Made by a program: the position numbers and the translations under genes. From Patescibacteria group bacterium (GTDB lineage: Bacteria; Patescibacteriota; Patescibacteriia; Patescibacteriales; UBA12075): a DNA stretch of 64,000 nt. This document shows positions 9,028-63,515 of this stretch, one piece after another. The stretch spans positions 374-64,373 of the forward strand of contig JAKJDO010000004.1 in NCBI GenBank assembly GCA_022705905.1, given 5' to 3'. The stretch's first letter is position 1; each line of letters starts with the position of its first letter. The notes beneath the pieces are model-generated. The model was not told the origin of the DNA. It did not search any database and saw only the letters and a program-made list of their open reading frames with translations.

Positions 9028-9396
9028 TCAGAAATGAGACAGCTCGAGAATCGCGCCGATGACGCTCGGCAGGTGGCTTTCGCCTAGGCATTGGTAGTTG
9101 CAGCCGGCCTGCACCAGCTCGTCAAGACGGCTGTGCCTTGCCACCGCAATGACAGGGATGGTCTGATTGACATCCCTGATTCGCCGTACTGTTTCTACGG
9201 CGCCGGGGTGGTCGCCGCACCCATCAATAACGATGATGGGGAAGCAATCGCTGGTCTTGGTAGCAGCGAGTTCGACTGCCGCTTTGACTGTTGTTTTGGA
9301 TACCGACAGATTACCGTCGGGCCAAACAACGCCCTGCTCGCAGATTGCACAGGTATCCGTCGTGCCGAGCACAAGAACTTTGATGCCCTTACTCAT
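9028..9396 (-). CDS. Orphan receiver-like (CheY/flavodoxin-fold-like) protein 1, degenerate
   Basis: SD AAGGAGGAG 6 nt upstream. Pattern IKVLVLG...PIIVIDGCGDHPGAVETVRRIR...IPVIAVARHSRLDELVQAGCNYQCLGE. Strongly GC-elevated. Confidence 0.5.
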   Translation of the reverse strand: MSKGIKVLVLGTTDTCAICEQGVVWPDGNLSVSKTTVKAAVELAATKTSDCFPIIVIDGCGDHPGAVETVRRIRDVNQTIPVIAVARHSRLDELVQAGCNYQCLGESHLPSVIGAILELSHF

Positions 9397-9954: not shown

Positions 9955-10318
9955 TCAGTTTTTTTCAGTAAAGATAATGATGACATCTGCCAGTTCGTCC
10001 CAGGGACAGGCGCAAGCGCAACAGTAGGCTTGTTCGTATTTAGCCCTGAGAGCTCGGTTGTCGGTGGCCGCAAGCAGGATCCTACCGCCATTACTTTTGG
10101 TAAGCTGCGCCCAATTATGCGTCTGAATGAGATTGTGCTTTTCGCAGGCGTCAACATCAAAAACCACCAAGCTGATGTCGGGAAAATTGGAAATGGTTTT
10201 TTTTTGCCCTTGCTTCATTGATGGTCCAAACGACTTCCACGCGGCCGGCTAAAGCAGTTTTTAGGTCAGCTACTCTCTGTCGGTCGTTACTGATAAAAAG
10301 TGCTCCCGGTATCCCCAT
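9955..10318 (-). pseudogene. Orphan receiver-like protein 3, interrupted by a 1-nt frameshift in an A9 tract
   Basis: ATG at 10318 (SD AAGGAGGAAgtt) opens a 53-codon frame, and ORF 9955..10218 continues in the +1 frame. The junction is the run 10197-10205. The span is 364 nt (3n+1). With A8 it would read one 120-aa protein. Confidence 0.6.
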
Positions 10319-12190: not shown

Positions 12191-12273
12191 TGTCATACTG
12201 AGCTGCAGGCGAAGGATCACGTAGATTTATAGCTCGAGATTCTTCACTCCGCCTCGCTCCGTTCAGAATGACA
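12191..12273. repeat. Palindromic TGTCAT..CTGAG / CTCAG..ATGACA element (short form)
   Basis: Arms TGTCATACTGAGC and GTTCAGAATGACA, inner arms GAAGGATC / GAGATTCTTC. Sits between rpsL and rpsG. Confidence 0.7.
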
Positions 12274-12283
12274 ATAATATATT

Positions 12284-12751
12284 ATGAGAGGTAAACCAGC
12301 ACCAAAAAGAAAAATTGAAGGTGATGCAAAATACAGCGATGTTGATATCGCAAAATTTATTAATTATATAATGGAAAGAGGCAAAAAGGCTACTGCCCAA
12401 AAGGTAGTGTATGATGCTTTTGAAGTTATTAAAGATAAAACAAAACAAGACCCTCGACACGTTTTTAATAAAGCGCTAAAAAAAGTCTCCCCGCTTTTAG
12501 AAGTGCGCGGACGCAGAATCGGCGGCGCTAACTACCAAATCCCTTTTCAGGTTAGAGGCGAAAGACGTTTTAACTTAGGTTGCCGTTGGATTATTGAAGC
12601 CGCTCACGAACGAAAAGGTAAAAAAATGGCGGAAAAGTTAGCCGATGAAATTTTAGCAGCAGCGAATGGCGAGGGCGCGGCTATGAGAAAAAGAGAAACC
12701 ATGCACAAAATGGCTGAATCAAATAAGGCTTTTGCACACTTCGCGCGCTAG
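12284..12751 (+). CDS. rpsG: 30S ribosomal protein S7
   Basis: S7 blocks (KKATAQKVVYDAF, EVRGRRIGGANYQIPFQV, AHFAR terminus) in the conserved position after rpsL. Confidence 0.95.
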   Translation: MRGKPAPKRKIEGDAKYSDVDIAKFINYIMERGKKATAQKVVYDAFEVIKDKTKQDPRHVFNKALKKVSPLLEVRGRRIGGANYQIPFQVRGERRFNLGCRWIIEAAHERKGKKMAEKLADEILAAANGEGAAMRKRETMHKMAESNKAFAHFAR

Positions 12752-12817
12752 GTTACAGGTTGGATTTCTTGTGTTTTAGGTTTTGGGTTTTAAAGTATTT
12801 AAATTTATTGAACATTG

Positions 12818-13172
12818 AAATATTATCGGGGAAGAAAATAATATAAGGAGGTGGCAGTTATGATAATTTTAAGGAATGGGAGACAGGGGACAAACGTACA
12901 GAAGATTCGTTTGAGAGAGCAGTTGCGGATGAAGCGTATTAACCGCAGATACAACACACCGCTTCCGGCAATGCAGATCATGCTTTCGACACCGAAAAAG
13001 AAGATACAGAAATTCGGGTGGTCGGTCTTCATGCAGATGATCACCGTATTCCTTGCCCTTCTCTTTGGCCACAATCGGAAAGGGGCTGTTGCTTAGGAGA
13101 TTCTATGCTTGCACAACTACGATAAAGCGCGAGATTGTTTTTTGCGTCTCGCGTTCTTCCCCGATAATATTT
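12818..13172. repeat. 355-bp cassette bounded by a perfect 19-bp inverted repeat, inserted between rpsG and fusA
   Basis: AAATATTATCGGGGAAGAA at 12818-12836 is the exact reverse complement of 13154-13172. The interior is GC-elevated and carries one SD-led ORF. Confidence 0.7.
12860..13096 (+). CDS. Small basic tail-anchored protein (78 aa), orphan
   Basis: AAGGAGGTG SD 8 nt before the ATG. Arg/Lys-rich N-terminal half and C-terminal TM (WSVFMQMITVFLALLFG). Confidence 0.45.
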   Translation: MIILRNGRQGTNVQKIRLREQLRMKRINRRYNTPLPAMQIMLSTPKKKIQKFGWSVFMQMITVFLALLFGHNRKGAVA

Positions 13173-13180
13173 TACATCTT

Positions 13181-13298
13181 TGTCATCCCCGCGAAGGCGG
13201 GGATCCATGGTAAATTCGCTCAACTTTGGTAAAACCTAAGACGTATTTTAAAGGCCTGTCTTCTTTTTCTGGATCCCGGGTTGCGGCCTGGGATGACA
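13181..13298. repeat. Palindromic TGTCAT...ATGACA element (long form with CTTTGGTAAAA core)
   Basis: TGTCATCCCCGCGAAGGCGGGGATCCA ... TGGATCCCGGGTTGCGGCCTGGGATGACA. Shares the core CTTTGGTAAAA..TAAG with 57577-57716. Confidence 0.7.
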
Positions 13299-13308
13299 AT
13301 AAAAAAAT

Positions 13309-13572
13309 ATGAATCAAAAAGGGGCGGGATTATTAGGATTGTTGATTGTAGCGGCAATCGTTGGATTGCTGGCTTACGGCGGTTATTCTTTTTGGAATAA
13401 AGATAAAAAGACAGATATCAATAATTTGCAACAAGTTGAAGACAACATAAATGAAACCAGGCAGAATCCAGTTGAACTGCATAATATAAAAATGAAGGCA
13501 ACTGAAGAGATTAATAAGATTAATCAAACGATTAAAGAACAAGCAAGTTCAACTGATAATTATTTAGAATAA
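13309..13572 (+). CDS. Small membrane-anchored protein with degenerate pilin-like N-terminus
   Basis: MNQKGAGLLGLLIVAAIVGLLAYGG resembles a class III signal / pilin helix but lacks F+1 and E+5. Polar coiled C-terminus. Confidence 0.5.
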   Translation: MNQKGAGLLGLLIVAAIVGLLAYGGYSFWNKDKKTDINNLQQVEDNINETRQNPVELHNIKMKATEEINKINQTIKEQASSTDNYLE

Positions 13573-13608
13573 AATAAAATATAAATTTTCAATTTTTAAT
13601 TTTCAATT

Positions 13609-13628
13609 CCTGCCTGCCGGCAGGCAGG
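13609..13628. repeat. Perfect 20-nt palindrome CCTGCCTGCCGGCAGGCAGG within an AT-rich symmetric spacer
   Basis: Exact palindrome. A related CCTGCCTGCCGACAAGCAGGCG sits at 57589-57610. Flanked by AATTTTCAA / TTGAAAATT arms. Confidence 0.7.
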
Positions 13629-13720
13629 TTCAAACAATTTTTAATATATCAATTTTGAAAATTTAAAAATTATATAATTGTTTTAAAATTAAAAATTGGA
13701 AATTAGAAATTAATAAGTAT

Positions 13721-15805
13721 ATGGCACGAGATTTTTCATTAGAAAAAACAAGAAATATAGGCATTATGGCGCACATTGACGCTGGCAAAACTACTTTTAC
13801 CGAGCGTGTTTTATTTTACACTGGTAAGAAGCATAAAATCGGTGAGGTTCATGAAGGTGCTGCCGAAATGGACTGGATGGAGCAGGAAAAAGAAAGAGGT
13901 ATTACCATTACTTCTGCTGCTACTACCTGTTTTTGGAAAGACAATAAAATTAATATCATCGATACTCCAGGACACGTTGATTTCACCGTTGAAGTCGAAC
14001 GTTCTTTGCGCGTGCTTGATGGAGCAGTGGCAGTGTTTGATGGGCAAGCTGGCGTTGAACCGCAATCAGAAACTGTTTGGCGACAGGCAGACAAATACAA
14101 CGTGCCACGTTTATGTTTTGTAAATAAAATGGATAAAATGGGCGCAGATTTTTACATGAGCTTAAATTCCATTCGCACTCGTTTGAATAAAAAAGCCGTG
14201 GCGGTCCAGTTGCCGATTGGCGCTGAAGAAAATATACGCGGCGTTATTGATTTGTTAACTAGAAAAGCTTATGAATTCAAAGGCGATAACGGCGAACAAA
14301 TTAATGAAATAGAAATTCCTGCTGATTTAAAAGATAAAGTAGAGGAATTCAGAGGCGATTTAGTAGAGCGAGCAGTTGAATGTGACGATGCGGTGACTGA
14401 AAAATATTTAAATGGCGAGGAAATTAGTGTTGAAGAATTGAAAAAAGCGATTCGCAAAGGCACAATTACTAGTCAGCTATTTCCTGTTTTCTGCGGCACT
14501 GCTCTAAAAAATATTGGTGTGCAATTAGTTTTAGATGGCGTTATTGAATATTTGCCGTCACCGTTGGAATTACCGGCTTTAGAAGGGATGGATCCGGATG
14601 ATGAAAATAAAAAAATAGAAATAAAACCGCAGGACAGCGAACCATTTGTTGGTTTAGCTTTTAAAATTGCTACCGATCCTTTTGTCGGTAGATTATGCTT
14701 CGTTAGAGTCTATAGTGGTATTTTGCAGTCAGGCTCCTATATTTTAAATTCAACTTCTGGCGAGAAGGAGAGAGTTGGGCGTTTAGTCAGAATGCACGCC
14801 AATCATCGTGAAGAAATAAAAGAAGTGGGCGCCGGTGATATCGCCGCTATTGTTGGTCTAAAGAATACTATCACGGGTAATACTTTGTGCGATGAATCAA
14901 GACCAGTACGCCTAGAAACAATTCATTTCCCTGAGCCGGTCATTAAAATTGCTGTTGAACCAAAGACTAAAGCAGACCAAGAAAAGATGGGCGTTGCCTT
15001 GCAGAAACTAGCCGAAGAAGACCCGACTTTCCGCGTGGAAACCGACGAAGAATCCAACCAAACTTTAATTTCCGGAATGGGAGAGTTGCACTTAGATATC
15101 ATCGTTGACCGTATGAAAAGAGAGTTTAAGGTCGAAGCCAATATCGGCAAGCCGCAGGTGTCTTATAGAGAAACTATCAAAACCAACGCCGACGCTGAAG
15201 GTAAATATATCAAACAATCAGGTGGGCGCGGTCAATACGGACATTGTTGGATTAAAGTTGAACCAAAAGAGGCTGGTGCCGGTAATGAATTCGTTGACGA
15301 AATTAAAGGCGGTGTTATTCCCCGTGAATATATTCCGGCTATTGAAAAGGGCGTTAAGGAAGCTAATGAAAACGGTGTTTTGGCTGGCTACCCAATGGTT
15401 GATATTAAAGCCACTGTTTATGATGGTAGCTATCATGAAGTTGACTCTTCGGAAGCCGCCTTTAAGATGGCTGCCATTTTTGGTTATAAAGATGCTTGTC
15501 GTAAAGCCAACCCGATTTTGCTAGAGCCAATTATGAAGGTTGAAGTAACTACCCCAGAAGAATATATGGGCAATATCGTTGGTGACTTAAGCTCAAAAAG
15601 AGGTCAAATTGGCCAGATGTCAGAAAGAGTTAATATTAAAGTAATTGATGCTAAAGTGCCTTTGGCCGAGATGTTTGGTTATGCCACCTCTTTAAGATCT
15701 TTAAGTCAGGGTAGAGCCAACTATACTATGGAGTTCTTGGAATATGCCGAGGTTCCTAAAAATATTGCTGAAAATTTAATTGGGGAAAAGTCGGGGAAAA
15801 AGTAA
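13721..15805 (+). CDS. fusA: Elongation factor G
   Basis: [21 protein letters not shown] GTPase motifs. Full-length 694 aa. Confidence 0.97.
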
Positions 15806-31537: not shown

Positions 31538-32737
31538 ATGTTAGTTACTGACATTTTCCGTTTAGCGACCAGAATGTTTCGCACCAACACATCTCGTACT
31601 CTGCTTACAATTTTAGGCATCAGCGTCGGTATTGGCGCTATTTTATTTTTACTTTCACTCGGTTATGGCTTGCAAAATTTGATTTTAAATCAGATTACTA
31701 CTTCTGACGCCCTATTGAGTTTAGATGTTACCGCCGGAGAAATTGAAAACTTAAAATTAAACGATGATTCTTTAAAGCAAATTAAAGAAACAATCGGCGT
31801 CGAAAAGGTTAGCCAGCTTATTTCCGCGCAAGGCCAAATGAAAGTTGGCGATATTTCAACCGAGCTGTTGGTGAATTTTGCCAATCAGGATTTTTTTAAA
31901 TTGGATGGCACGACTATTAAAAAAGGTGATTTTTATACCGACGAAGAAGGCGATAATAGTAAAATCATTATCTCTTCTTCGGCTTTGCAACTTTTTAATT
32001 TAAGTGAAGAAGATGCTTTTGAGAAAACAATTAAGTTTACTATATTAGTTCCGATTTTAGAAAATAGCAATGAAACCAAATCAGTCGAGCTTGACAATGA
32101 ATTTAAAATTGTTGGCATTATTCAAGAAGAAGGTTCTAACTACGCCTATATGCCGTTGTCTTGGGGCAATCAGCTAGGCATTAAAGATTATAATAAAATT
32201 AAAGTTAAAGTCAGATCGGAGGGCGACTTAACTATTGCTCGTAGCGCTATAATGGAAAAGGGTTATTCGGTCAGCGCTTTATCTGATATCATTGAGCAAG
32301 CCAAGCAGGTATTTAATATAGTTCAGATAGTTTTAGCTTCTTTTGGAGTTGTCGCCCTAATCGTCAGCGCCATTGGCATGTTTAACACTATGACTATTGC
32401 CCTTTTGGAAAGAACGCAGGAAATCGGTATTATGAAAGCTTTAGGGGCAACCAGCGGCGATGTTTGGCAGATGTTTCTAGCAGAAGCAGTAATTATCGGT
32501 TTTTTAGGCGGCTTGGGCGGTATTATTATCGGTTGGGCAGGCGGACAAGGATTTAATTATGGCATCAATTTGCTCGCCGGCGCTTTTGGCGGTGATAAAA
32601 TCGATATTTTTTATACGCCGTTTTGGTTTGTAACTTTAATTATTAGTTTTTCTACTATCGTTGGTTTGCTTACCGGTTTTTATCCAGCACGGCGAGCTGC
32701 TAAGATCAGTCCGTTAGTGGCGTTGAGATATAAATAA
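31538..32737 (+). CDS. ABC transporter permease, FtsX/MacB family
   Basis: N-terminal TM, ~230-aa extracytoplasmic domain, then 3 C-terminal TMs with the FtsX-type motif (IGIMKALGAT...). Confidence 0.85.
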   Translation: MLVTDIFRLATRMFRTNTSRTLLTILGISVGIGAILFLLSLGYGLQNLILNQITTSDALLSLDVTAGEIENLKLNDDSLKQIKETIGVEKVSQLISAQGQMKVGDISTELLVNFANQDFFKLDGTTIKKGDFYTDEEGDNSKIIISSSALQLFNLSEEDAFEKTIKFTILVPILENSNETKSVELDNEFKIVGIIQEEGSNYAYMPLSWGNQLGIKDYNKIKVKVRSEGDLTIARSAIMEKGYSVSALSDIIEQAKQVFNIVQIVLASFGVVALIVSAIGMFNTMTIALLERTQEIGIMKALGATSGDVWQMFLAEAVIIGFLGGLGGIIIGWAGGQGFNYGINLLAGAFGGDKIDIFYTPFWFVTLIISFSTIVGLLTGFYPARRAAKISPLVALRYK

Positions 32738-32791
32738 TGTAAAGTTGAAAAATCAAAATGAGTAATAAAAATATAAATTAATTTTTAAATT

Positions 32792-33073
32792 ATGAAATTG
32801 AATTATAGAGCATATTCGGAAGGATTGAAAAAAATATCAGGAGAAGAAATGAAAAAAAAGGTTGGCGTTGTAAGAATGAAAGATGCTTCTGGTAAATTTG
32901 AAAGATTAGAAGGAGCGGCTTTAAGATATAAAGTGGTCGACTTGGTTAGGGGAGGAAAATCTAGAATGCAAATAGTCGAGGAGCTAAAAAAAAGCGGAGT
33001 TAATATGGATCAGTTTGAAAAAAGAAATAAAATTATGGCCCTAATTGACTCTCTATATAGCAAGGAAAAATAA
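32792..33073 (+). CDS. Small basic hypothetical protein (paralogous to the N-terminal region of the next gene)
   Basis: 93 aa. Shares LKKIS...V(R/K)MK..GK...K(V/I)..L...G...L.K pattern with 33140..34138. Confidence 0.55.
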   Translation: MKLNYRAYSEGLKKISGEEMKKKVGVVRMKDASGKFERLEGAALRYKVVDLVRGGKSRMQIVEELKKSGVNMDQFEKRNKIMALIDSLYSKEK

Positions 33074-33139
33074 TAAATGATTTTCTATTTTACATTGTCA
33101 TTTTGCATTTTGATTTTTTAATTTTAAATTTTAGATATA

Positions 33140-43933: not shown

Positions 43934-44272
43934 ATGGCGGACGGTTTGTCATTGGCTGGAGCGGGGAGGAATGTTCTCAAAGGACGGTATCCTAATGATG
44001 TACAGCGGGGGATAATAGCTAAGCTTGTAAGCGCATGTCCCGACATTAAGTGTCCGGGGACTGTTCCGTTTGATAGCTTGTTGGCCATTAAGGCCCTGGA
44101 TAGACTGCGCGATGGTCAGAGGAGAAACGTGCTGATCTCTGAATTGCGCGATCTGGTTTCAAAAGGCAAGGCCAGACAGAAAGGTGCTGCAGTCGGACTG
44201 ACGACAGTTGAAGCAGCAGCGCTTTTCAAGACGTCTCTGGGGTCTACCAGCGGCAATGGCGGCGGTCAGTAA
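43934..44272 (+). CDS. GC-rich orphan protein, 112 aa
   Basis: SD GAAGGAGGG 8 nt upstream and its own terminator. Gly/Ala/Arg-rich. No family recognised. Confidence 0.55.
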   Translation: MADGLSLAGAGRNVLKGRYPNDVQRGIIAKLVSACPDIKCPGTVPFDSLLAIKALDRLRDGQRRNVLISELRDLVSKGKARQKGAAVGLTTVEAAALFKTSLGSTSGNGGGQ

Positions 44273-50012: not shown

Positions 50013-50085
50013 GCCGTTGTAGCTCAGCTGGTAGAGCACTTCCATGGTAAGGAAGTGGTCCGCGGTTCAAGCCCGCGCAACGGCT
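50013..50085 (+). tRNA. tRNA-Thr (anticodon GGU)
   Basis: Cloverleaf folded by hand: acceptor GCCGTTG/CAACGGC, anticodon stem CTTCC/GGAAG with loop ATGGTAA, T arm CGCGG-TTCAAGC-CCGCG. Confidence 0.9.
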
Positions 50086-50131: not shown

Positions 50132-50488
50132 ATGGAAACGTTTCGTTTTTTAAAATTTAAAGTTTATCAAGACGCTAAAAGTTATTTTAAGTTAATACTA
50201 ATTATTTCTGAAAGAATCAATAGCTATTCTTTCAAAGATCAAATCAGAAGAGCTGTTTTATCAATTGTTCTAAATATCGCTGAAGGCTCAGCGAAAAAAT
50301 CTGATGCTGAATTTGCTAGATTTTTAGAAATATCTTTGGGTTCAATAAACGAAGTAGTCGCTTGTTTAGATATAATGAAGGAATTAAATAAGATAAATAA
50401 AAAAGAATATGAAGACTTGCTTAATAGTTCAGAAGAATTAGCAAAGCAATTAGGTGGTTTTATAAAAAAGTTAAGAAATAAAAGCTAA
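50132..50488 (+). CDS. Four-helix-bundle protein (23S rRNA intervening-sequence protein family)
   Basis: FKVYQDAKSYF...IRRAVLSIVLNIAEGSAKKSDAEFARFLEISLGS...E signature of the family. Confidence 0.8.
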   Translation: METFRFLKFKVYQDAKSYFKLILIISERINSYSFKDQIRRAVLSIVLNIAEGSAKKSDAEFARFLEISLGSINEVVACLDIMKELNKINKKEYEDLLNSSEELAKQLGGFIKKLRNKS

Positions 50489-50521: not shown

Positions 50522-50604
50522 GGGTCGGTACCAAAGCGGTCAACTGGGGCAGACTGTAAATCTGCTGGCTTACGCCTTCGAAGGTTCGATCCCTTCCCGG
50601 CCCA
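50522..50604 (+). tRNA. tRNA-Tyr (anticodon GUA), long variable arm
   Basis: Acceptor GGGTCGG/CCGGCCC, anticodon stem GCAGA/TCTGC with loop CTGTAAA, T arm GAAGG-TTCGATC-CCTTC. Terminator hairpin follows at 50616-50640. Confidence 0.9.
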
Positions 50605-63422: not shown

Positions 63423-63515
63423 TGTCATCCTGAGTCCGCTGGGCGAAGAATCTCGTATCTGATACGTTTTTCCCCAGGATTCTTCGCTGCCTGAAGACAG
63501 GCGCTCAGAATGACA
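63423..63515. repeat. Palindromic TGTCATCCTGAG...CTCAGAATGACA element (short form)
   Basis: Outer arms TGTCATCCTGAG / CTCAGAATGACA; inner arms GCGAAGAATC / GGATTCTTCGC. Confidence 0.75.

Follow-up and report, generated by a model that had tools for sequence, protein, structure and literature searches.

The DNA analyzed here, a stretch of 64,000 nt that is referred to as the window throughout, was assigned to Candidatus Falkowbacteria within the Patescibacteria (Candidate Phyla Radiation, CPR) by means of its ribosomal protein S7 and its elongation factor EF-G. S7 is 70-82% identical to the corresponding proteins of the closest Falkowbacteria genomes at species level, and a genome of the same species (GCA_040772285.1) comprises 1.06 Mb. 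In the window, the rpsG stop at 12751 and the fusA start at 13721 are separated by a gap of 969 nt. A 355-bp element occupies the proximal part of this gap and consists of two perfect 19-bp inverted repeats, subsequently designated arms, which enclose a small gene, orf78, preceded by a Shine-Dalgarno (SD) site. The features of the junction are, in 5' to 3' direction:

12284 to 12751, plus strand: rpsG (S7, 155 aa), the upstream boundary of the junction, assigned from the list of open reading frames (ORFs) and from PF00177 on identical genes
12816 to 12836, plus strand: left arm, perfect from 12818 to 12836, with G12817 and U12816 added in the RNA helix
12845 to 12853, plus strand: SD site AAGGAGGTG, with its GGAGG core 8 nt upstream of the ATG
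12860 to 13096, plus strand: orf78 (78 aa), with ATG at 12860 and stop codon at 13094-13096
13128 to 13153, plus strand: small 3' hairpin of 7 bp with a 12-nt loop, CGCGAGA (13128-13134) pairing with TCTCGCG (13147-13153), which abuts the right arm
13154 to 13174, plus strand: right arm, perfect from 13154 to 13172, with U13173 and A13174 added in the RNA helix and a U-rich stretch thereafter
13182 to 13298, no strand assigned: cargo-free GTCAT...ATGAC palindrome of 117 bp, resembling a miniature inverted-repeat transposable element (MITE), 9 nt past the right arm
13309 to 13572, plus strand: orf87 (87 aa), small pilin-like membrane protein with weak N_methyl and prepilin-type matches
13584 to 13704, no strand assigned: AT-rich palindrome with a CCTGCCTGCCGGCAGGCAGG core and 23-nt arms that are 91% complementary, upstream of fusA
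13721 to 15805, plus strand: fusA (EF-G, 694 aa), the downstream boundary, assigned from the ORF list and from Pfam domains on the identical gene

An earlier note, made from the letters of the window, had described the exact 19-bp repeats, an SD-led ORF for a basic, C-terminally anchored protein of 78 aa, the CGCGAGA/TCTCGCG hairpin, and a distance of about 970 bp between rpsG and fusA that is shared with a second palindrome and an 87-aa gene. These were recovered at the positions given above, with slight corrections to the coordinates.

The left arm, AAATATTATCGGGGAAGAA with the core ATCGGGGAAGAA, begins 66 nt past the rpsG stop, ends 8 nt short of the SD site and is the exact reverse complement of the right arm (19/19, or 20/21 when the repeat is extended). 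The segment between the arms measures 317 bp, and orf78 is its only convincing ORF. In the entire window this pair is the sole exact inverted repeat of at least 15 nt with an arm spacing of 20-1000 nt. When 100 sequences were simulated with a first-order Markov model, none contained a 19-mer pair and two contained a 17-mer pair. The 19-bp inverted repeat is thus real and beyond chance. No further copy of the arm was detected in the window (up to 3 mismatches), in about 18 kb of additional flanking DNA of the same species (up to 4 mismatches), or in the loci of 80 relatives (up to 3 mismatches); the search for copies of the 19-mer, which the earlier note had proposed, accordingly came out negative in all three sets. 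In metagenomes, the 17-mer ATATTATCGGGGAAGAA was present at 119 or more loci, and the matches listed were all lone chance matches in unrelated coding DNA (...DIIGEE...) devoid of a partner arm. The 19-mer had no match in viral contigs, and the element had none in phage and plasmid collections, where matches were restricted to the neighbouring GTCAT palindrome.

To this single copy correspond 27 fetched loci from NCBI, JGI, ENA and Logan assemblies, representing 18 distinct contigs, which cover the element collinearly with 99.9-100% identity, so that it is not an assembly artefact. Across the 18 contigs the element is free of single-nucleotide polymorphisms and has a single orientation, and none of them contains an empty site. 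Hence, the element is a real, species-fixed insertion of 355 bp in the rpsG-fusA spacer, single-copy as far as searched, i.e. in the window and the flanks of about 18 kb.

The product of orf78 carries a net charge of +12 in its N-terminal 50 residues, its best hydrophobic 19-mer comprises residues 52-70 and is predicted to form a C-terminal transmembrane anchor, and it contains a PxPAMQ motif. AlphaFold2 modelled the protein as all-helical with a predicted local distance difference score (pLDDT) of 64 and a predicted template-modelling score (pTM) of 0.26, values too weak for a fold search. A word-indexed search of 5.8 billion proteins returned only orf78 itself, as a truncated call of 55 aa. 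Indeed, gene callers omit orf78 or begin it at Met24 (55 aa) in many assemblies with identical DNA, and since the gene is often skipped in this way, the family is probably under-counted in protein databases. HMMER run on all 1.84 billion cluster representatives detected one true relative, the 77-aa protein P0003, at a library-wide E of 7e-4. In pairwise comparison (E = 9e-8), the two proteins are 56% identical over residues 1-39, and 11 of the first 12 residues match (M[IV]ILRNGRQGTN). They have in common the basic stretch, the PxPAMQ motif, the C-terminal hydrophobic helix and a final A[IV]A, and the substitutions between them are conservative at the protein level. Since P0003 retains length, N-terminal motif, PxPAMQ and membrane anchor at about 40% identity, purifying selection appears to act on the protein. 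The GC content of orf78 at codon positions 1, 2 and 3 is 0.44, 0.35 and 0.62, respectively, which is a coding pattern (GC3 > GC1 > GC2), and orf78 is probably a real gene.

P0003 is encoded on a contig of 1,449 bp, on which the gene order is S7, a 124-aa gene and the 77-aa gene, so that both known members are located just downstream of rpsG. Judged from sequence comparison, orf78 and P0003 constitute a new protein family with two members, both of them small, basic, tail-anchored and linked to rpsG. Neither protein had a credible match in Pfam, NCBIfam, PHROGs or PADLOC; Pfam UPF0697 (17.8 bits versus a cut-off of 27) and PADLOC MTase_II (11.4 bits) were rejected as noise. The orf78 profile was likewise without match in viral contigs, and the protein in phage and plasmid collections.

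The composition of the insert differs from that of its host. The interior, which had been described as GC-elevated, exceeds host coding DNA modestly in overall GC (0.46-0.49 versus 0.39), and the 3' half of rpsG is equally high; the difference is clear at third codon positions, where GC3 is 0.62 in orf78 and 0.36 in host genes. The synonymous-codon score of orf78 (-0.28) falls outside the span of 47 host genes (-0.14 to 0.34). Moreover, an SD motif is missing in 60 of 66 window genes (~90%), whereas orf78 possesses a perfect one at optimal spacing. By these sequence properties, orf78 looks foreign.

To place the insertion among relatives, the junction was compared in 77 related genomes, in which rpsG and fusA lie 3 to 1250 nt apart (median 86) and are separated by more than 400 nt in nine cases. 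The statement of the earlier note that the two genes adjoin each other in most bacteria is therefore only loosely true within the clade. No orf78-like sequence was found at the junction of these 77 relatives by tblastn, relaxed thresholds included, and the insert is missing from the same junction in ~77 related Falkowbacteria. The earlier note had set a mobile cassette against a fixed regulatory structure, and had tied the latter to a 19-mer unique to the locus together with an insert conserved in all relatives. The outcome was mixed: the 19-mer is unique as far as searched, and the insert is fixed in the species and absent from every other species examined.

The enclosure of a gene by a long palindrome at this site is not confined to this species. 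The following junction inserts of relatives, whose loci are numbered with the prefix L, are bounded by complementary arms:

L076, 5475 to 6065: 43-nt arms, 100% complementary, enclosing a 144-aa ORF
L057, 5465 to 6692: 40-nt arms, 88% complementary, enclosing a 349-aa pilin-like gene
L051, 1192 to 1679: 38-nt arms, 87% complementary, enclosing a GxxExxY gene (TIGR04256, E = 2e-33)
L046, 5757 to 6312: 28-nt arms, 100% complementary, enclosing a 144-aa ORF
L067, 3030 to 3615: 17-nt arms, 94% complementary, enclosing a gene for a CsaA-like tRNA-binding protein

The enclosed genes are mutually unrelated (144-aa unknown, pilin-like, GxxExxY, CsaA-like). In L076, L057 and L051 the arms start a few nt from the S7 stop and finish a few nt from the EF-G start. 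Neither the L051 spacers nor the right spacer of L076 folds by itself, so that these represent split palindromes rather than two separate hairpins. When a score for enclosing repeats was calculated for 677 genes of 60-400 aa from the window and the relatives' loci, the top three genes were junction inserts, and a score of 16 was reached by only 6 of the 677 genes; orf78 would score 19. Enclosure by a long palindrome is thus characteristic of the genes that are inserted at the rpsG-fusA junction in this CPR class. The strong enrichment of repeat enclosure among junction inserts suggests selection for the architecture.

The junction of many other relatives contains cargo-free short hairpins as well as AT-rich and hairpin-type palindromes. 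The arms in L057, L046 and L067 are of the GTCAT...ATGAC type, a palindrome family that is represented in the window by three cargo-free copies at 12192-12272, 13182-13298 and 63424-63514, the first two of which flank rpsG. This arm family was also detected in junctions of relatives and on plasmids of Legionella, Azospirillum, Novosphingobium and Photobacterium. The copy at 13182-13298 folds alone at -40.6 kcal/mol (z = -2.2), and a weak Rfam match to FtrB (E = 0.003, under the gathering score) covers 13161-13268. The AT-rich palindrome upstream of fusA embeds CCTGCCTGCCGGCAGGCAGG, a GC-rich perfect palindrome whose core recurs in the L080 junction. Similar AT-rich palindromes occupy the junction in L055, L022, L066 and L080, and one such palindrome encloses the ORF in L076. 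Pilin-like ORFs that are homologous or analogous to orf87 and share its N-terminal motif are present at the junction in L049, L068, L046, L057, L064, L032, L035 and L047. The proteins comprise 69-349 aa, with a motif of the prepilin type at the N-terminus and a coiled, charged tail behind it. Going by these sequence likenesses, orf87 is a resident junction gene in the lineage.

Next, we consider the element at the level of RNA. The arms are predicted to pair over 21 bp, as the wobble pair G12817.U13173 and the pair U12816-A13174 prolong the perfect repeat. For the interior alone, a folding energy of -82.9 kcal/mol was predicted, which falls to -112.9 kcal/mol when the arms are included, so that the arms add about -30 kcal/mol; the arm duplex itself was predicted at -27 kcal/mol. 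The interior is not unusually structured, with z-scores of -0.29 for one strand and -1.14 for the other, and Rfam searches with the element yielded nothing at the gathering threshold nor at E up to 10. A structured non-coding RNA was rejected on these grounds, and the combination of an unstructured interior with the lack of an Rfam family is consistent with an mRNA. The leader (12810-12870) folds alone at only -2.5 kcal/mol and is thus unstructured. In the predicted fold, the SD site and the AUG of orf78 are free and outside the long helix, meaning that the stem loops the gene out and does not mask its start. The earlier note had suggested, as an alternative to a mobile cassette, that the ORF is sequestered by a very long stem in the RNA; such a stem, at about -27 to -30 kcal/mol, is indeed predicted, but sequestration disagrees with the position of SD and AUG and with the weak fold of the leader. 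Terminator-like sites were not detected between rpsG and fusA, except for one weak match within orf87.

An arrangement of this kind is known from intervening sequences (IVSs) of rRNA genes. The IVS in the 23S rRNA gene of Coxiella burnetii comprises 428-444 nt, forms a 28-bp stem from its terminal repeats, carries an ORF in the loop and is excised by RNase III without ligation (PMC4990558). IVSs replace the tip of a pre-existing helix and are thought to be present in CPR rRNA genes, too (PMC11270868). The element resembles the Coxiella IVS in size (355 nt), in the stem of 19-21 bp and in the small ORF placed in the loop. Both reside in a very highly transcribed operon of the translation apparatus, and both are sporadic among related taxa while being fixed and nearly invariant within the species. 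The differences are that the element lies in the spacer of an mRNA operon rather than in an rRNA helix, that the gene it carries has a strong SD site and encodes an unrelated, basic protein with a membrane anchor, and that excision by RNase III has been demonstrated for IVSs and is presumed for the element. Because of its location in the rpsG-fusA mRNA spacer, the element is not classed as a member of the IVSs but is compared with them only in the way it would work. The window also encodes a four-helix-bundle protein typical of IVSs, whose gene (50132-50488; TIGR02436, E = 2e-27) is located between tRNA genes at 50013-50085 and 50522-50604. This family was first described within 23S rRNA intervening sequences; the gene has a GC content of 0.27, and its complementary flanks comprise only ~13 nt and are imperfect. 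A further parallel is provided by the Correia elements of Neisseria, which are intergenic inverted repeats co-transcribed with their neighbours; their RNA hairpins bind RNase III and are cleaved or protected, altering adjacent expression (PMC2649163). Correia elements, however, measure 100-155 bp, occur in hundreds of copies and are non-coding, whereas the present element is single-copy and encloses a gene.

Taken together, we favour, with a probability of roughly one half, a horizontally acquired, repeat-enclosed cassette that resembles an rRNA intervening sequence, and which would be looped out of the operon RNA by the 21-bp helix and possibly be cut by RNase III. This reading builds on what was observed directly, namely the repeat, the gene with its one homologue, the foreign composition, the lack of the element in relatives and the repeated finding of enclosed inserts at the junction. 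In the proposed sequence of events, the 355-nt unit would be transcribed as part of the str operon, whereupon the arms would pair at about -27 to -30 kcal/mol, loop the gene out and bring the operon flanks together. As the 21-bp helix matches the size of an RNase III site, the insert would probably be excised. It would be released as a discrete mRNA with a free SD site, leaving behind separate rpsL-rpsG and orf87-fusA RNAs. The enclosing repeat may be what makes an insertion in an essential operon tolerable. With respect to origin, the gene may have arrived by horizontal transfer, either as a cassette already bounded by inverted repeats or by landing in the middle of a hairpin that the spacer already contained.

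Several points weigh against this reading. Promoter-like sites overlap the left arm; they are of consensus level and no commoner than in shuffled sequence, but if they represent a genuine promoter of orf78, the resulting transcript would lack the left arm. Since the arms are perfect, they carry no compensatory changes. A motif scan for RNase III found no rnc in the ~100 kb covered for the species, which is less than 10% of the genome. The location of the second family member, behind rpsG in another organism, is as compatible with an old resident gene passed on vertically as with horizontal acquisition. The enclosed genes of the relatives look native, with GC3 values of 0.18-0.28 and no SD site; these may be old residents, in which case the analogy to orf78 would only be architectural. 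Finally, co-transcription, pairing in vivo and cleavage by RNase III are steps that we infer, as are the insertion route and the role of the protein.

Perfect terminal repeats around a passenger gene, with no transposase inside, would also be expected of an active non-autonomous DNA transposon, i.e. a mobile insertion cassette (MIC) or a cargo-carrying MITE, whose terminal inverted repeats of 19-21 bp are recognized in trans by a transposase whose gene resides elsewhere in the genome, and for which the RNA stem is incidental. The foreign-like composition of the element and its absence from related species agree with this explanation, as does the MITE-like palindrome 9 nt away, in a spacer where elements of this sort accumulate throughout the clade; besides, the enclosing repeats of several relatives belong to a palindrome family that also resides on plasmids of unrelated bacteria. 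Like the element, MICs and cargo MITEs such as MIC231 of Bacillus cereus are small and intergenic, and have inverted repeats bounding one or more passenger genes but no transposase (PMC4337579, PMC5444012), and the enclosing arms in some relatives likewise belong to a repeated palindromic family. In contrast to those elements, neither a second copy (window and flanks of ~18 kb), a clear target duplication, a presence/absence polymorphism within the species nor a cognate transposase was found, and the arms match no repeat family found in this analysis. Reading the translations of the window genes, which was the sole basis of this assessment, revealed no evident transposase, recombinase or invertase. 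The check for target-site duplications yielded nothing convincing: no direct duplication adjoins the 19-bp arms, and only when the ends are taken as 21-bp imperfect repeats (TG...TA, one mismatch) is CAT found on both sides, a possible 3-bp duplication that is weak after several registers were tried. As AATATT within the arms is itself palindromic, a palindromic target duplication (TA or AATATT) would be indistinguishable from the arms. All 18 distinct contigs carry the element without variation, phage and plasmid collections lack it, and the only homologous gene again follows closely on rpsG, which is unexpected for a freely transposing element. We therefore consider active transposition unlikely. 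Of the MITE-like cargo cassette proposed in the earlier note, the architecture, the foreign composition and the parallel of the relatives' enclosed inserts stood up, while mobility found no support, with a single copy in the searched DNA, no transposase in the window and no convincing duplication. A segment of about 300 bp placed between perfect 19-bp inverted repeats also has the geometry typical of invertible switches of the fimS type. A recombinase flipping the 317-bp interior, and thereby placing orf78 in sense or antisense orientation relative to the operon, would account for this geometry and for the identity of the arms, which recombination between them would maintain. However, none of the 27 spanning loci (18 distinct contigs from many samples) is inverted, and the window contains no evident invertase, making an inverton highly improbable. 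A minus-strand call of 55 aa at the end of contig L214 was considered as a flipped copy and rejected, as its DNA is collinear with the window.

The RNA features bear on two further explanations. If orf78 were a small membrane toxin, the element might be a type I toxin-antitoxin-like locus, in which the mRNA is kept inactive through a 5'-3' long-distance interaction and an antisense RNA serves as antitoxin. Type I toxin mRNAs typically have 150-400 nt, and a strong SD site, a 3' stem-loop and long-distance pairing between 5' and 3' end are their key determinants (PMC8594479). The unit of 355 nt falls into this range, and similarity to hok and aapA (PMC8594479, PMC6733600) extends to the strong SD site, the 3' stem-loop, the end-to-end pairing, which assumes a transcript holding both arms, and the single hydrophobic helix of the product. 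In addition, minus-strand promoter-like hexamers are positioned opposite the SD/start region, but the antisense matches are of consensus level and do not exceed the expectation from shuffling (11 versus 7.9), and neither an antisense terminator nor a match to an Rfam antitoxin family was found. Unlike in type I toxin mRNAs, SD and AUG are unmasked here, the helix stopping 8 nt upstream of the SD site, and no anti-SD pairing is prominent in the predicted fold. The protein is longer than the known toxins of 20-60 aa and has a strongly basic N-terminal part of 50 residues, and searches of Pfam, NCBIfam, PHROGs and PADLOC gave no toxin family match. A type I system thus appears decidedly improbable. 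Finally, the element may have no function at all, the repeat being a by-product of insertion, for example where a hairpin of the spacer broke at its tip, and orf78 being a passenger that is decaying or not expressed. Hairpins whose stems reach at least 14-15 bp are common in the spacer immediately behind rpsG in relatives, and a split hairpin is therefore a plausible origin. Frequent omission of orf78 by gene callers and the existence of only two family members among billions of proteins would fit such a passenger, and the ORF in the Coxiella IVS is reported to be decaying and probably untranslated (PMC4990558). On the other hand, orf78 is intact and identical in every assembly and has an optimal SD site and spacing; the features conserved in its diverged homologue and the enrichment of repeat enclosure among junction inserts likewise speak against an inert passenger, which we judge improbable.

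If the reading as an IVS-like cassette applies to the relatives as well, a broader scheme can be formulated, which we regard as speculative and rather doubtful as a whole. CPR bacteria of the Falkowbacteria clade might use "messenger-RNA intervening sequences", in which a palindrome loops accessory genes out of essential translation operons and the helix either provides a site for excision by RNase III or brings the upstream stop close to the downstream start. In this way, operon expression could be kept across an insert of 0.35-1.2 kb, and orf78 could act as a translation-associated membrane factor. The str operon ranks with the most highly conserved gene arrays of bacteria, and in one CPR class extra genes have repeatedly landed in its rpsG-fusA spacer. 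Enclosure by long inverted repeats has previously been described for rRNA intervening sequences and MITE-type elements. Insulation or excision by the helix, if true, would explain how streamlined genomes of about 1 Mb tolerate insertions in essential operons, and would extend the concept of intervening sequences from rRNA to mRNA operons.

Elsewhere in the window, a full AAGGAGG precedes a handful of genes, two of which are GC-rich orphans:

9028 to 9396, minus strand: orphan gene of 122 aa, GC content 0.57, SD site, atypical codon usage, no family match
43934 to 44272: orphan gene of 112 aa, GC content 0.54, SD site, atypical codon usage, no family match

These two orphans share the signature of orf78 and look like a class of foreign genes. 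Another orphan gene, coding for 93 aa (32792-33073), is situated in the interval separating an ABC-permease-like gene from the gene after it. AT-rich arms of 53 nt, which are 75% complementary and touch both neighbours (region 32728-33138), surround the orphan, making it a weaker example of the enclosed architecture. A polymorphism between strains was noted in the GC-elevated region 9955-10317, where a 1-bp indel at 10197 alters the gene calls: some strains have a minus-strand gene of 120 aa, and in the other strains the calls are shorter or lie on the opposite strand.

Other repeated structures were seen at the rpsG-fusA junction of relatives. The junction palindromes in L060, L078 and L019 are composed of tandem short repeats (CGTAACC/CGTAACT or ACATGTAGC units) with folding energies of -30 to -50 kcal/mol, and in L060 the same type of tandem repeat is present on both sides of rpsG. 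Directly 3' of rpsG, an imperfect palindrome of ~100 nt with GCCGTATGTTAATACGGC at its centre is conserved in L037, L011, L044, L015, L039, L043, L007, L071, L009 and L021, and represents another repeated hairpin element or possibly a conserved RNA structure.

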